A DNA stretch of 64,000 nt, taken from NCBI RefSeq assembly GCF_030013205.1, contig NZ_CP122648.1. One strand, written 5' to 3'. The notes beneath the pieces are model-generated. The model did no database searches. It was not told where the DNA came from and was given only the letters and a program-made list of their open reading frames with translations. The DNA is from Escherichia coli. GTDB taxonomy: Bacteria; Pseudomonadota; Gammaproteobacteria; Enterobacterales; Enterobacteriaceae. Numbering within the stretch: position 1 is the first letter of the stretch; every line of letters starts with the position of its first letter. Both the position numbers and the translations under genes were made by a program. Of the stretch, positions 1,832-57,018 are shown one piece after another.

Positions 1832-3592
1832 TTGACCATTACGAAACTTGCATGGCGTGACCTGGTTCCTGATACCGATAGCTATCAGGAAATATTTGCT
1901 CAGCCACATTTGATTGACGAAAACGATCCTTTATTCAGTGATACTCAACCGCGACTGCAATTTGCGCTGGAGCAGTTGCTGCATACGCGAGCATCCTCCT
2001 CTTTTATGCTGGCGAAGGCCCCGGAAGAGTCTGAGTATCTGAATCTTATTGCCGATGCCGCGCGTGCGCTACAAAGCGATGCAGGCCAACTGGTGGGCGG
2101 TCACTATGAGGTTTCCGGGCACACCATCCGCTTACGTAACGCAGTGAGTGCAGATGATAATTTTGCGACTTTAACGCAAGTTGTCGCTGCCGACTGGGTA
2201 GAAGCGGAACAACTCTTTGGCTGCCTGCGCCAGTTTAATGGCGACATTACCCTGCAGCCAGGTCTGGTGCATCAGGCAAATGGCGGTATTCTCATCATCT
2301 CTTTGCGTACACTGCTGGCGCAACCTCTGCTGTGGATGCGGCTGAAAAATATCGTTAACCGCGAGCGTTTTGACTGGGTTGCGTTTGATGAGTCGCGCCC
2401 TCTCCCCGTCACTGTGCCTTCGATGCCATTGAAGCTGAAAGTCATTCTGGTAGGCGAACGCGAATCATTGGCTGATTTCCAGGAGATGGAACCAGAGCTT
2501 TCAGAGCAGGCTATTTATAGCGAATTTGAAGATACTCTGCAGATTGTCGATGCGGAGTCAGTAAGCCAGTGGTGTCGCTGGGTGACATTGACCGCCAGAC
2601 ATAATCACTTACCTGCACCAGGAGCGGATGCCTGGCCGGTACTTATCCGCGAAGCAGCCCGCTACACCGGTGAACAAGAAACACTTCCGCTTAGCCCGCA
2701 GTGGATCCTCCGCCAGTGTAAAGAGGTCGCCTCCCTGTGCGATGGCGACACCTTCTCCGGCGAGCAGCTAAACTTAATGCTGCAGCAGCGTGAATGGCGT
2801 GAAGGTTTCCTCGCTGAACGCATGCAGGATGAGATCCTTCAGGAGCAAATCCTGATTGAAACCGAAGGCGAATGCATCGGGCAAATTAACGCCCTTTCGG
2901 TCATTGAATTTCCGGGTCATCCACGCGCTTTTGGCGAACCTTCTCGCATTAGCTGCGTTGTGCATATTGGCGATGGTGAATTCACCGACATCGAACGCAA
3001 AGCGGAGCTTGGCGGCAATATCCATGCGAAAGGGATGATGATCATGCAGGCGTTCCTGATGTCGGAACTACAGCTTGAGCAACAGATCCCCTTCTCAGCA
3101 TCGCTGACATTTGAGCAGTCATACAGTGAAGTGGATGGCGATAGTGCCTCGATGGCTGAACTCTGCGCCCTGATAAGCGCCCTCGCCGATGTGCCGGTGA
3201 ATCAGAGTATCGCTATCACAGGTTCAGTCGATCAGTTCGGTCGTGCCCAGCCGGTCGGTGGTTTAAATGAGAAAATCGAAGGCTTCTTTGCTATTTGCCA
3301 GCAACGTGAGTTAACCGGGAAACAAGGTGTCATTATCCCCACTGCTAACATTCGCCATTTAAGTCTTCACAGTGAACTGGTGAAAGCGGTAGAAGAAGGC
3401 AAATTCACCATCTGGGCAGTAGACGATGTGACTGACGCACTGCCGTTATTATTAAATCTGGTGTGGGATGGCGAAGGCCAAACGACGCTGATGCAAACCA
3501 TCCAGGAACGTATCGCGCAAGCATCGCAACAGGAAGGACGTCACCGTTTTCCATGGCCATTACGTTGGCTGAACTGGTTTATTCCGAACTGA
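1832..3592 (+). CDS. ycbZ: Lon-like protease homolog YcbZ (LonH)
   Basis: 586-aa [25 protein letters not shown]...; matches E. coli YcbZ in length and sequence; synteny matP-ycbZ-fabA. Confidence 0.93.
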
Positions 3593-51911: not shown

Positions 51912-52676
51912 TTACTTACCAGAGGCGATACGATCACGGATGTGTTGCGCACGCTCTGTTGATGGTGGGTGAGAGTCAAACATGGACTGGGTACGACCGC
52001 CATCCAGGCTGGCCAATTTTTCAAAGCTGCCAACCAGCCCCTGGGTGCTGATGCCACGTTTCTTCAACAGTTCAAAGGAGAAATCATCTGCTTCGGACTC
52101 TTTATCGCGGGAGTATTTAGCATTGATCGCGCCTTCTGCGATATCACCTAATTGTGAGCGAGAAAGCTGGGAAGCCACACCGCTGGTAGCGGAAATCGCA
52201 TCACGTGCGGCAACGATCGCATAAGAAGCTTTCATTTCAGCCAGCGAGTGACCCAACGCGACGTGGCCCAGTTCATGACCCAGAACGCCTTCAATTTCGT
52301 TGTCGTTCATCATGTCCATCAGGCCACTGTAGACACGAACACAGCCGTTCGCCATCGCCCATGCGTTGACGTCGCTGGTCATATAAACCTTATAGTTGAC
52401 CGGCGTGCCATTAATATTGTTACCCAATGCTTTGGCGATTTTTGCCAGACGTTTACCGTACTTGCTGGATTTACTTGCGACTTGATTGCCGCTGTCCATT
52501 TCGGCACAGCCCTGATTGGCAATCGCTTTTGCATCAGCATCGCTTAACGTTGCTGCTTTATAGGCATTTAAACCTGAGCTGATAGCCATATTGGTATCAA
52601 TACCGTGGGTATTTTGACACCCTGTCAGTAATGCTGCAGAAGCCGCAATCGCCAGCAGTAATTTAGTATTCTTCAT
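51912..52676 (-). CDS. ycaL: M48-family zinc metalloprotease lipoprotein YcaL
   Basis: ORF track 51912..52700 trimmed to ATG at 52676 (MKNTKLLLAIAASAALLTGC lipobox); 254 aa; HELGH zinc motif (HELGHVALGH); matches E. coli YcaL. Confidence 0.92.
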   Translation of the reverse strand: MKNTKLLLAIAASAALLTGCQNTHGIDTNMAISSGLNAYKAATLSDADAKAIANQGCAEMDSGNQVASKSSKYGKRLAKIAKALGNNINGTPVNYKVYMTSDVNAWAMANGCVRVYSGLMDMMNDNEIEGVLGHELGHVALGHSLAEMKASYAIVAARDAISATSGVASQLSRSQLGDIAEGAINAKYSRDKESEADDFSFELLKKRGISTQGLVGSFEKLASLDGGRTQSMFDSHPPSTERAQHIRDRIASGK

Positions 52677-52774
52677 GTGAATCATCCGTTGATTAATCAT
52701 ATATAAATATTATGTATCAACAACTTACATTGACAAGCGACGCTACCATTAATCAAAATGACTCACAAGGTCCG

Positions 52775-53485
52775 AATAAATATCCTCCGGCATAGCCGGA
52801 GGTTTTTCAAATGCGCCTATAAGGCTCTCTTACCAGCCGCGCCCTAACAGGCGCACACGATCTGACATTTGCATCCAACTTCGTTACTTACGGCCCGTAA
52901 ACGGGCTGCCCGGATAGGGAATCGATAACTGCTCTCCCATTTTATCCTCTTCAAGCTGGTGCTTTATGTAATCCTGTATCTTCGCCGTGTTCTTACCCAC
53001 CGTATCGACGTAGTACCCTCTGCACCAGAACTCTCTGTTCCTGTATTTGAATTTCAAATCACCAAACTGCTCGTAAAGCATCAGACTGCTTTTCCCTTTC
53101 AGATATCCCATAAAGCCGGATACGCTCATTTTGGGCGGGATCTCCACAAGCATATGGATATGATCTGCACAGCATTCAGCTTCAAGAATCCGTACGCTTT
53201 TCCACTCACACAGCTTTCTCAAAATACTGCCTATTGCTCTACGCTTCTCTCTGTAGAACACTTGTCTTCGGTATTTTGGCGCAAAAACTATGTGATATTT
53301 ACAGTTCCATCGGGTGTGCGCTAAGCTCTTTTCGTTCCCCATTGGGACCCCCTTTTGATTTCTTGTTTGACACTTGCAGTTGCCAGACCGCAAGGTGTTT
53401 TAACAAATCAAAAGGGGTTTTAATAACTGGCTCAAAGCTGAAAGCTTTCCGGAACCCCCAGCCTAGCTGGGGGTTTTCTGTGCAC
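52775..53485 (-). mobile_element. IS200 insertion sequence (IS200/IS605 family), about 0.71 kb, tnpA only
   Basis: Contains a 152-aa Y1/HuH transposase ORF with the recalled hallmark features of IS200 (twin subterminal GC hairpins at 52784..52802 and 53455..53473, and an RBS-occluding inverted repeat in the tnpA leader). Boundaries estimated (+/- about 20 bp) from hairpin positions and the canonical ~707-bp length; not confirmed by alignment. Confidence 0.7.
52884..53342 (-). CDS. tnpA: IS200 transposase TnpA (Y1 HuH single-strand transposase)
   Basis: ORF track 52884..53393 trimmed to ATG at 53342 preceded by AAGGGGG RBS; protein MGNEKSLAHTRWNCKYHIVFAPKYRRQVFY...ADHIHMLVEIPP...YPGSPFTGRK matches the recalled IS200 TnpA (HuH motif HIH, catalytic Tyr region); 152 aa. 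Confidence 0.9.
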   Translation of the reverse strand: MGNEKSLAHTRWNCKYHIVFAPKYRRQVFYREKRRAIGSILRKLCEWKSVRILEAECCADHIHMLVEIPPKMSVSGFMGYLKGKSSLMLYEQFGDLKFKYRNREFWCRGYYVDTVGKNTAKIQDYIKHQLEEDKMGEQLSIPYPGSPFTGRK

Positions 53486-53555
53486 AAAAAAAACGCCGAC
53501 AATGTGCCGACGTTTTGATAAAGAAAGATTTGGCTATTTATTGCCCGTTGTTCAT

Positions 53556-54839
53556 TCAGGCTGCCTGGCTAATCCGCGCCAGCTGCTCGAAATAATCCGG
53601 AAATGTTTTGGCCGTACATTTGGGATCAAGAATCGTCACTGGTGTATCTGACAACGCCACCAGCGAGAAACACATCGCCATCCGGTGATCATTGTATGTC
53701 GCGATCTCGGCAAAGTTCAGTTTTTCCGGTGGAGTGATACGAATGTAATCGTGCCCCTCTTCTACTTCCGCACCAACTTTACGCAGTTCTGTTGCCATCG
53801 CAAACAGGCGATCGGTCTCTTTAACACGCCAGTTATAGATATTGCGCAGCGTGGTGGTGCCTTTTGCAAATAACGCCGCCGTGGCAATGGTCATCGCCGC
53901 ATCGGGAATATGGTTCATATCCATATCAATAGCGTTCAGTTCACCACGCGTGCAGGAAATATAATCGTCGCCCCAGCAAATAGTCGCGCCCATTTTTTCC
54001 AGCACATCAGCAAAGCGAATATCACCCTGCATACTGTTGCGTCCAATGCCGGTCACTTTTACAGTGCCGCCTCTGATTGCTGCTGCTGCCAGGAAGTAAG
54101 AAGCCGAAGATGCATCGCCTTCGACCAAATAAGTACCCGGAGACTGATAAGACTGCCCGCCTTTTACGACAAATTGTTGATAGTGCTGATTTTCAATTTC
54201 AACACCAAACGTCTTCATCAGATTGAGTGTGATGTCGATATAAGGTTTAGAAACCAGATCGCCTTTAATACGAATAACCGTATCTTCCGGCGCAAGAGGC
54301 GCAGTCATTAATAGTGCGGTGAGGAACTGGCTGGAAACGGAGCCATCAACGTCAACGTTGCCGCCAGTAAAGCTGCCCTGTAAACGCAATGGCGGATAAT
54401 TTTCTTGTTCCAGGTAAGTGATCTTCGCCCCGCCCAGGCGCAGCGCATCCACCAGATGACCAATCGGGCGCTCTTTCATACGCGGCTCACCAGTCAGCAC
54501 AATATCATTGCTACCCAGACAAAGAGCTGCCGCCAGCGGGCGCATTGCCGTTCCGGCGTTTCCGAGGAACAACTCCAGGGCACCTTCTGCGTGTAATGGA
54601 CCGCCGTTACCGATAATTTCGCAACGCGTACGATCAGCTGAAAGCGTATAGCTTACCCCTAACGCTGCTAATGCATTCAGCATATGGCGCACGTCATCGC
54701 TATCCAGCAGATTGGTTAATACTGTTTTGCCGTGTGCTAATGCCGCCAGCAATAAAGCGCGGTTAGAAACGCTCTTGGAACCGGGCAGATTAATAGTGCC
54801 ATCGACACGAGCGATGGGTTGTAACGTCAGGGATTCCAT
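53556..54839 (-). CDS. aroA: 3-phosphoshikimate 1-carboxyvinyltransferase (EPSP synthase)
   Basis: 427-aa [60 protein letters not shown]...; matches E. coli AroA. Confidence 0.97.
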
Positions 54840-54860
54840 GAACTCAACTCTCTACAACAG

Positions 54861-54890
54861 AAATAAAAACCCCACAGGCTGGCTGTGGGG
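54861..54890 (-). terminator. Intercistronic terminator/attenuator-like hairpin between serC and aroA
   Basis: 8-bp stem CCCCACAG / CUGUGGGG with 5-nt loop followed on minus strand by UUUUUAUUUCUG; lies in the 70-bp serC-aroA spacer, so probably partial termination within the serC-aroA operon. Confidence 0.55.
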
Positions 54891-54909
54891 ATTAAGCAAA
54901 ATTTCGGCA

Positions 54910-55998
54910 TTAGCCGTGACGGCGTTCGAACTCAATCATGAAGTCTGTCAGCGCTTTAACGCCTTCCAGTGGCATGGCGTTATAAATGGACGCACGCATT
55001 CCGCCGACCACACGGTGACCTTTCAGTGCATGAAGGCCAGCAGCAAAAGACTCTTCAAGGAACAATTTGTCAAGCGCACTGTCCGCCAACTGGAACGGCA
55101 CGTTCATCCGCGAACGGTTAGCTTTCGCCACGTCATTGCGGTAGAAATCGCTGTTATCAATCACCCCATACAGCAGTTCTGCTTTTTGCTGATTGATTTT
55201 ATCCATTTCAGCTACACCGCCGTTCGCTTTCAGCCATTTAAAGACCAGACCAGACAGATACCAGGCAAATGTCGGCGGCGTGTTAAACATGGAGCCGTTA
55301 TCGTTGAGGATGGAATAATCCAGAATCGACGGACACGCGATATTCGCTTTGCCCAGCAAATCTTCACGAACGATGACGATTGTCAGGCCTGCCGGGCCGA
55401 TATTTTTCTGCGCGCCAGCGTAAATCACGCCATAACGGCTGACGTCAATCGGACGGGAAAGAATGGTTGAAGAGAAGTCGGCGGCGACCACCACATCTTT
55501 GCCGAAGTCTGGCGTTTCGTCGATGGCGATACCGTCGATAGTTTCATTCGGGCAATAATGCATATAAGCAGCATTATCAGAGAGTTGCCATTCACGCATT
55601 GGTTTAACCGCGCGCAGACCATCAACAGTCACTTTGGCGTCAAAGACATTAGGCGTGCAGTATTTTTTCGCTTCTTTAATGGCACTTGCCGCCCAGTAAC
55701 CGGCATCAACATAATCTGCAGTGGTTTTATCACCGAGAATATTCAGCGGAACAGCAGCAAACTGACCGCGACCGCCGCCATGGCAGAACAATACCTTGTA
55801 GTTGGAGGGGACATTAAGAAGATCGCGAAAATCCTTCTCGGCTTCCTCTGCAACCTGAATGAACTCTTTGCCACGGTGACTCACTTCCATCACCGACGTA
55901 CCAAGACCGTTCCAGTCGCGCAGTTCCTGTTGAGCCTGTTTAAGCACCTCTGCCGGTAGCATTGCCGGACCAGAACTAAAATTGAAGATTTGAGCCAT
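54910..55998 (-). CDS. serC: Phosphoserine aminotransferase
   Basis: 362-aa [59 protein letters not shown]...; matches E. coli SerC. Confidence 0.97.
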
Positions 55999-56196
55999 TT
56001 CCCCTCACCACGTTGCGTTGCTATTAACCCGCGGTCAATCGATTGCGACCACAGGTAATACATTATTCCTGTGGCTATCGGTTTTATCATTCAGTGACAC
56101 ACATCGCAATGAGTAAAACCGTTGAGGGCAAAAATGTGGCTTGCATCACACAAAAGAATCTCTCGGATTATTAGCAAAAAGCCGATGTTTTTACTG

Positions 56197-56889
56197 TCAC
56201 GTCACCCGTTTTGCCCGACTTGCCTTCGTCCATTCTGGATTTGCACAGCGCGGACATAATTGTTTTTCCCCCGCGTTCATATGAATGATTTCACTGCAAC
56301 GAATGCAGGCATAGTCCGCCGACTCCGGCACCACTTTGTAACGCTGAGTACAATCACTGGGTAAAATAAGTAAACCCGGTTTCACCTTGTCATCTTCAAA
56401 GAAATAGACACTGATTTGCCCGTTGGTTTCGAGAATCGCCAGACGTACCTGCCCCAACTGCTCTACACCGCGCAATCGTAGCTCCATAAAGAACTCAAAT
56501 TCCGTCATGTTGGAGTTATTGAGTTTTGACCAGGCCAGCTCGCCATCTTCAATAATGACAACCGGCTTGCCTTCCAGAAGATCTTCCAGTTTTTCACTGT
56601 GCGCCATCAACCACATTACCAGGCGGTATAACAACGCCAGAGTAATAAAGACGATAAGTACCGGGACCATCGGCACATCATCATAAAACGCCACATCTCC
56701 CGCCGCTGATCCCAGCGTCAGAATGATTAACACTTCAAAAAGCGACATCTGCCGCACACCGCGTCTTCCGGTCATTTTGAGGAACAAAAAAACCAGTACA
56801 AAGGTATAAAGACTACGTAGTGCCACTTCGCCAAGGAAATCAAAAGGCACTTTATCAAATGCCATACGGTGGAGATCGAACGCCTTCAT
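56197..56889 (-). CDS. ycaP: DUF421-family inner membrane protein YcaP
   Basis: 230-aa ORF MKAFDLHRMAFDKVPFDFLGEVALRSLYTFVLVFLFLKMTGRRGVRQMSLFEV...; matches E. coli YcaP. Confidence 0.9.
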   Translation of the reverse strand: MKAFDLHRMAFDKVPFDFLGEVALRSLYTFVLVFLFLKMTGRRGVRQMSLFEVLIILTLGSAAGDVAFYDDVPMVPVLIVFITLALLYRLVMWLMAHSEKLEDLLEGKPVVIIEDGELAWSKLNNSNMTEFEFFMELRLRGVEQLGQVRLAILETNGQISVYFFEDDKVKPGLLILPSDCTQRYKVVPESADYACIRCSEIIHMNAGEKQLCPRCANPEWTKASRAKRVT

Positions 56890-57018
56890 TTTTATGCTCT
56901 TATCGTGGTTTATCCACTAAAAGCATAGTCAACAGTTCATCGGCATGGCGGCGGTGATAGCGCCTTTGAGATAAAACCCGTATTATTGCGCGCTTTCCGT
57001 ACGACTAAAGTGATTTTC

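Follow-up and report, generated by a model that had tools for sequence, protein, structure and literature searches.

A conserved hairpin in the serC-aroA spacer of Escherichia coli as a probable leaky intrinsic terminator

The window analysed in this study is a 64-kb stretch of Escherichia coli DNA in which serC and aroA lie one behind the other on the minus strand, separated by a short spacer that contains a hairpin followed by a U-tract. The features of the locus are listed below in window coordinates.

56062..56090, minus strand: promoter-like site ATGATA-17-AATAAT, the candidate serC promoter, found by consensus scan alone
54910..55998, minus strand: serC, the promoter-proximal gene (3-phosphoserine/phosphohydroxythreonine transaminase), an open reading frame that matches NCBIfam NF003764 (E = 7e-167) and is annotated as serC in matching E. 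coli genomes
54912..54910, minus strand: serC stop codon UAA, read from the sequence
54909..54840, minus strand: serC-aroA spacer of 70 nt, read from the sequence
54891..54909, minus strand: segment UGCCGAAAUUUUGCUUAAU, read from the sequence, the 19 nt from the serC stop codon to the hairpin and hence the distance between a terminating ribosome and the hairpin
54870..54890, minus strand: terminator hairpin, with the 5' arm CCCCACAG (54890..54883), the loop CCAGC (54882..54878) and the 3' arm CUGUGGGG (54877..54870)
54861..54869, minus strand: U-tract UUUUUAUUU, eight U in nine bases, beginning at the first base past the stem (scan and sequence)
54848..54852, minus strand: GAGAG, the likely Shine-Dalgarno sequence of aroA, recognised in the alignments
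53556..54839, minus strand: aroA, the distal gene (3-phosphoshikimate 1-carboxyvinyltransferase), an open reading frame that matches TIGR01356 (E = 3e-139) and is co-transcribed with serC (PMC11878033)

On the minus strand the spacer reads UGCCGAAAUUUUGCUUAAU-CCCCACAG-CCAGC-CUGUGGGG-UUUUUAUUUCUGUUGUAGAGAGUUGAGUUC, preceded by the UAA of serC and followed by the AUG of aroA. It is identical base for base to the spacer of MG1655 (NC_000913.3 958742-958811), where the hairpin occupies 958761..958781 and the U-tract extends up to 958790. The gene order around the locus is that of K-12 (ycaO / ycaP / serC / aroA / ycaL(loiP) / cmk), and a stretch of 351 nt around the spacer was found to have a match in 5425 of 5426 complete E. 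coli genomes, with 100% identity to swine isolates such as CFSAN018748. At the next gene of this order, loiP/ycaL (51912..52700, minus strand), the window contains an open reading frame of 262 amino acids, whereas the annotation of the 100%-identical reference strain CFSAN018748 records a frameshift in this gene; the start or frame of loiP/ycaL in this window may differ from that in K-12.

The hairpin was recovered by a terminator consensus scan of the minus strand as a stem of 8 bp, six of them G-C, closed by a loop of 5 nt and followed by the tail TTTTTATTTC. It is positioned 19 nt past the serC stop codon and 30 nt ahead of the aroA AUG. Both hallmarks of an intrinsic terminator were observed here: the transcribed strand carries a G-C-rich, short-looped stem within the usual length of about 5-14 bp, and a U-rich tract within the usual 7-9 nt begins right behind it. 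A G-C stem with a U-tract had been noticed at 54861-54890 in the sequence-only reading, which placed it on the coding strand; the hairpin and nine nucleotides of the U-tract were found to occupy exactly this interval, and the strand is likewise correct, as the minus strand is the sense strand of both serC and aroA. The isolated hairpin has a folding energy of -13.4 kcal/mol (z = -2.8 against shuffles) and the entire spacer one of -18.7 kcal/mol (z = -2.0), and the hairpin is present in both the minimum free energy (MFE) and the centroid fold computed in a context of 150 nt. The element is one-directional, since the terminator scan reports nothing on the plus strand, where no T-run comes after the palindrome. 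Judging from what is generally known of intrinsic terminators, the 3' ends of the RNA would be expected at about 54863..54861, corresponding to 958788..958790 (+) in NC_000913.3.

Within E. coli the element is nearly invariant. A core of 38 nt, made up of the hairpin, the U-tract, three upstream bases and five downstream bases, shows no difference in 5406 of the 5414 matching E. coli records and occurs at a median of one place per genome. The complete stretch of 76 nt from stop codon to start codon shows 1-3 differences in 1370 records, and the two differences of the variant sampled fall into the segment of 19 nt at 54891..54909, 5' of the hairpin.

For the comparison beyond E. coli, AroA was scanned for in one genome per species, which gave 80 loci from which the spacers were then extracted. 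The serC gene was found directly upstream of aroA in about 50 Enterobacterales loci, and this arrangement was not found in Vibrio, Pasteurellaceae or Orbaceae in the same scan. A stable hairpin with an energy between -12 and -24 kcal/mol is present in 49 of the 50 Enterobacterales spacers of at most 400 nt. The MFE of these spacers has a mean z of -2.5 relative to 200 dinucleotide shuffles, with 64% of the spacers below -2. In 20 genera of Enterobacteriaceae the hairpin follows the consensus CCCC(A/G)C(A/G)G-loop-C(U/C)G(U/C)GGGG with 6-8 U in the nine bases thereafter, and the distances are 15-26 nt from the serC stop codon to the hairpin and 29-33 nt from the hairpin to the aroA AUG. The GAGAG motif is invariant in 20 of 21 aligned spacers, where it forms part of the conserved UGAGAGUU(A/G)AGUUUC-AUG. 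A run of at least four U, often as UUUUCAU, is found directly 5' of the hairpin in 13 of the 20 Enterobacteriaceae genera and the rest of this segment is variable; possible readings of this run are an Hfq-type module, an RNase E site and common descent.

A covariance model was built from the Enterobacteriaceae spacers and then used to align 21 sequences from about 20 genera. In this alignment 98.2% of the cells of the stem are paired and compensatory changes occur at four of the eight pairs, a result reached by none of 500 shuffles; fitting an alignment to a structure model favours pairing, and both the slid controls and a plain MAFFT alignment agree with the result. When the 3' partner was slid by 1-3 columns, pairing dropped to 38-68%, which makes an artefact of the fitting improbable. 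The fifth pair is an example of a compensatory change, as A-U is replaced by G-C in five sequences. Taken on these comparative sequence data, the hairpin is a structure under selection across Enterobacterales.

The other families were observed to keep a hairpin in differing form. Erwiniaceae, Pectobacteriaceae and Yersiniaceae have a different G-C-rich hairpin, positioned 26-37 nt ahead of the aroA AUG (at 48 nt in Acerihabitans) and anywhere between 26 and 197 nt past the serC stop codon. It is followed by a good U-tract in Brenneria, Dickeya and Tatumella and by a poor one in Yersinia (2-3 U in nine bases). In Morganellaceae such as Photorhabdus, 7-21 nt separate the stop codon from the hairpin (50 nt in Moellerella) and the hairpin is remote from aroA, and the Photorhabdus hairpin is again followed by a poor U-tract (three U in nine bases).

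Several spacers were found to have unusual lengths. The spacer of Yersinia aldovae measures 255 nt compared to 107-129 nt in two other Yersinia species, and the additional sequence, some 126 nt, is located between the serC stop codon and the conserved hairpin and resembles a small inserted element, perhaps of the ERIC or IRU kind. The serC-aroA interval extends to 0.8-1.2 kb with extra coding sequence in Budvicia, a Psychromonas metagenome-assembled genome (MAG) and Edwardsiella ictaluri. An apparent hisC-like aminotransferase is located in the Psychromonas interval and an apparent IS-like insert in that of E. ictaluri. The Psychromonas arrangement recalls the ancestral gene order serC-hisHb-aroF described earlier (PMC1173090).

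Two longer helices enclosing the hairpin were considered and abandoned. The long MFE helix GCUUAAU/GUUGAGU, which would cover part of the aroA ribosome-binding region, is 59.7% paired across genera and was rejected. The helix between the upstream UUUUC and the Shine-Dalgarno sequence GAGAG is 70.2% paired. All of its pairs are weak ones (U-G or U-A) formed with an invariant 3' side, and the E. coli sequence is out of register with it, so that this helix is not supported either.

A terminator inside the serC-aroA operon has long been known. Hoiseth and Stocker in 1985 and Duncan and Coggins in 1986 are said to have noted a terminator-like structure and to have demonstrated that serC and aroA form one operon in which serC insertions are polar on aroA. 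Man, Pease and Winkler in 1997 (J Bacteriol 179:3458) reportedly classed about 80% of the serC transcripts as monocistronic, which they explained by Rho-independent termination between the two genes. In our consensus scan ATGATA-17-AATAAT was the sole sigma-70-like site on the minus strand between ycaP and the aroA start, and no such site for aroA was found on the minus strand from the serC start to aroA (56000 to 54840). The 30 nt between the hairpin and the aroA AUG are occupied by the U-tract and the conserved GAGAG.

Evidence for transcription across the spacer comes from a 2025 study in which aroA was described as co-transcribed with serC and the small RNA GcvB as pairing with the serC 5' UTR (PMC11878033). 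Pulse expression of GcvB lowered the serC mRNA to 40-48% and the aroA mRNA to 40-46%, while an aroA translational fusion was not repressed by GcvB, from which the authors concluded that the bicistronic serC-aroA mRNA is degraded (PMC11878033). As aroA is co-transcribed with serC and both mRNAs fall together under GcvB, some transcripts evidently read through the hairpin and termination would be partial; the joint fall is consistent with read-through from the serC promoter. Term-seq of MG1655 (Adams 2021) yielded a curated list of 882-1175 dominant 3' ends per condition, in which no entry was found at 9587xx-9588xx or under serC or aroA; this carries little weight because the strong terminator after aroA is also missing from that list. 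A full-text literature search on serC, aroA and terminators returned nothing on the spacer.

The least credible of the readings considered takes the hairpin for a palindrome that arose by chance, or for one copy of a dispersed repeat (REP or BIME, for instance), without any role in the operon. A loose terminator scan does yield many matches, with 13 sites in 6 kb compared to 6.3 +/- 2.8 in shuffled sequence, and a loose match by itself therefore says little, since shuffles produce such sites too. A strict motif, defined by at least eight perfect Watson-Crick pairs, at least six of them G-C, a loop of 3-8 nt and at least seven T in the next nine bases, was found at seven sites on both strands of the 64-kb window and at none in each of 20 dinucleotide shuffles, and among these seven sites the one between serC and aroA has the best U-tract (eight of nine). 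This shuffle test, the compensatory changes across genera and the single-copy count, which is not that of a REP or BIME element, together rule this reading out. It is very improbable that the hairpin is a complete terminator of a monocistronic serC unit with aroA transcribed from a separate promoter, located either in the spacer or within the 3' part of serC. The element looks strong enough for this, and the constant 26-37 nt between hairpin and aroA AUG in several families might be taken in the same sense. However, the minus strand from 56000 to 54840 offers no sigma-70-like site, the gap of 30 nt before the AUG is taken up by the U-tract and Shine-Dalgarno sequence, and serC insertions are, as mentioned above, said to be polar on aroA. 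The aroA mRNA moreover tracks the serC mRNA when GcvB targets the serC 5' UTR (PMC11878033).

A regulated attenuator, switched by an alternative structure, a ligand, a protein or a small RNA, would fit the position of the hairpin ahead of a biosynthetic gene and the U-rich stretch preceding it in 13 of 20 genera, but it is decidedly improbable in view of the structural data. The hairpin is isolated, with no competing pairing in the 150-nt MFE and centroid folds; no antiterminator was found in the fold with 150 nt of upstream context, and neither an attenuator nor a riboswitch was recognised. The two enclosing helices mentioned above are not conserved and show no informative covariation, there is no leader open reading frame as the upstream sequence is the end of serC, and an Rfam scan of 52500..57000 at E <= 1 gave no family in the spacer, the only match being STnc490 of an IS200 element. 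Among the Hfq CLASH chimeras listed, one in the serC 5' UTR and one in the aroA coding region were found and none in the spacer. The same two results, from Rfam and from the Hfq CLASH entries listed, leave an Hfq-bound small RNA derived from the serC 3' UTR and ending at the terminator without support. Somewhat less improbable, though still doubtful, is a hairpin that serves mainly as an RNA-stability element, either by blocking 3' exonucleases or by forming a boundary once an endonuclease has cut the bicistronic mRNA, with the difference between serC and aroA arising from differential decay. Spacer hairpins are kept in Yersinia and Photorhabdus despite their poor U-tracts (2-3 and three U in nine bases), the E. 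coli hairpin folds as a stable structure standing alone, and any serC mRNA released by termination would have this hairpin at the 3' end. A stability hairpin nevertheless needs no U-tract, and 6-8 U in nine bases directly past the stem are found in E. coli and 19 other Enterobacteriaceae genera. A genome-wide study of E. coli operons with differential decay (Dar and Sorek 2018 PLoS Genet) does not list this operon in its supplementary tables, a point of little weight. A role in RNA stability may apply to the Yersinia and Photorhabdus hairpins, perhaps as the main role there, and termination and RNA stability can coexist in one element.

The most probable explanation by a wide measure of confidence is that the element is a constitutive and leaky intrinsic (Rho-independent) terminator inside the serC-aroA operon. 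We infer termination at this site from its anatomy and from the literature, and the same holds for its partial character, which is not derivable from a sequence in which the element looks strong. In the proposed mechanism, RNA polymerase starting at the serC promoter would transcribe serC, and 19 nt past the stop codon the nascent RNA would fold into the G-C-rich hairpin of 8 bp, followed by UUUUUAUUU. A large share of the polymerases would release their transcript at the U-tract to give a monocistronic serC mRNA, whose 3' hairpin would also shield it against 3' exonucleases. The remaining polymerases, probably a minority, would read through, and ribosomes would then start at the conserved GAGAG/AUG located 30 nt downstream to produce AroA. 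The expected outcome is a serC message in excess of the aroA message from a single regulated promoter. Partial termination had already been proposed in the sequence-only reading and is supported here by sequence features that all lie on the transcribed strand between co-oriented genes, by the selection on structure and by the evidence for read-through. Its further suggestion that the hairpin sets the serC:aroA ratio may hold; translation and decay also contribute to this ratio. Through such an element one promoter, regulated by Lrp, CRP and GcvB, would supply two enzymes in different amounts, SerC being a high-flux enzyme (serine and vitamin B6) and AroA a lower-demand enzyme of the shikimate pathway.

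The efficiency of the terminator may in addition depend on how closely the lead ribosome trails RNA polymerase at the end of serC, a tentative refinement that is drawn by analogy and seems rather unlikely on present grounds. When the lambda tR2 terminator was placed after a stop codon in a reporter, its efficiency was near zero at a distance of a few nucleotides, 0.12-0.8 in a sequence-dependent manner at 17-18 nt and about 0.9 beyond 27-30 nt (Li et al. 2016, PMC4824070). A ribosome at or near the stop codon was shown there to suppress tR2 over a range of 8-27 nt, as the lead ribosome hinders folding of the hairpin (PMC4824070). The hairpin studied here is likewise an intrinsic terminator candidate situated shortly past a translated gene, and because its distance of 19 nt in E. 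coli and 15-26 nt in the Enterobacteriaceae falls within the range to which tR2 is sensitive, ribosome proximity may add to its leakiness. The lambda system is, on the other hand, a reporter construct with a phage terminator. The much longer distances from stop codon to hairpin in other families argue against ribosome proximity as a conserved requirement. If the refinement applied, read-through into aroA would rise under tight coupling of transcription and translation and fall on uncoupling, and the aroA:serC ratio would depend on conditions without a dedicated regulator.

The element is the already described serC-aroA intercistronic terminator of E. coli, and neither the element nor the principle is new. 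It does not differ from the terminator between serC (pdxF) and aroA known from E. coli K-12 and Salmonella, being flanked by the same genes in the same order and having a spacer of 70 nt equal to that of MG1655; the difference lies in the host strain, which belongs to a swine-associated lineage of E. coli and has an IS200C behind the aroA terminator. Further partial terminators within operons of E. coli are the rplL-rpoB attenuator and the T1 terminator of rpsU-dnaG. As in the serC-aroA spacer, a hairpin with a U-tract between cistrons lowers distal transcription in these operons without a separate regulator, although the operons and sequences are unrelated and rplL-rpoB is also processed by RNase III, for which no site is known between serC and aroA. 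A report on ABC-transporter operons of Clostridia describes the same principle, an internal stem-loop terminator that leads to an excess of the upstream product (PMC9045158). There it is the stoichiometry of subunits that is set, and the phylum and the genes differ (PMC9045158). The leader-peptide attenuators trpL, pheL and hisL place the same type of hairpin and U-tract before biosynthetic genes, but they require a leader open reading frame and a mutually exclusive antiterminator, neither of which is available in the serC-aroA spacer. The locus would thus offer a textbook-style example of a partial terminator within an operon, to which the comparative data add the selection on structure across Enterobacterales.

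The region downstream of aroA contains a second terminator and an insertion sequence with the following features.

53486..53516, minus strand: operon-end terminator after aroA, AAAACGUCGGCACAUUGUCGGCG followed by U8, found by scan (-14.0 kcal/mol, z = -6.1)
52775..53485, minus strand: IS200C of about 711 bp, delimited by the junctions 53486/53485 and 52775/52774
53393..52884, minus strand: open reading frame of the IS200C transposase gene tnpA
53475..53352, minus strand: Rfam match STnc490/art200 inside IS200C

IS200C was found to be inserted exactly past the T8 tract of the aroA terminator, where the sequence reads GTCGGCGTTTTTTTT / GTGCACAG...GGAGGATATTTATT / CGGACC with slashes marking the junctions. 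The corresponding site in MG1655 is the uninterrupted GTCGGCGTTTTTTTTCGGACC, and no target duplication is visible at the insertion after aroA. The junction between the aroA terminator and IS200C is present in 52 of 5426 complete E. coli genomes, and the strains that carry it gave 19-33 matches to the query, which includes the left end of the IS.

A second IS200C was observed in E. coli P31_YH1_02.21 (NZ_CP085063.1, locus 2501..3287), this time inside the serC-aroA spacer, right past the U-tract of the internal terminator and in the same orientation as the copy after aroA. The junctions there read CTGTGGGGTTTTTATT / GTGCACAG...ATATTTATT / TCTGTTGTAGAGAG. As two independent insertions abut T-runs of this kind, they suggest that IS200C targets T-runs 3' of terminator hairpins. 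Similar insertion preference is reported for IS1541 in Yersinia. A terminator at the left end of IS200 has been described (PMC4513863), and P31_YH1_02.21, in which aroA lies behind both the serC terminator and the IS200 left-end terminator, provides a natural test of read-through.
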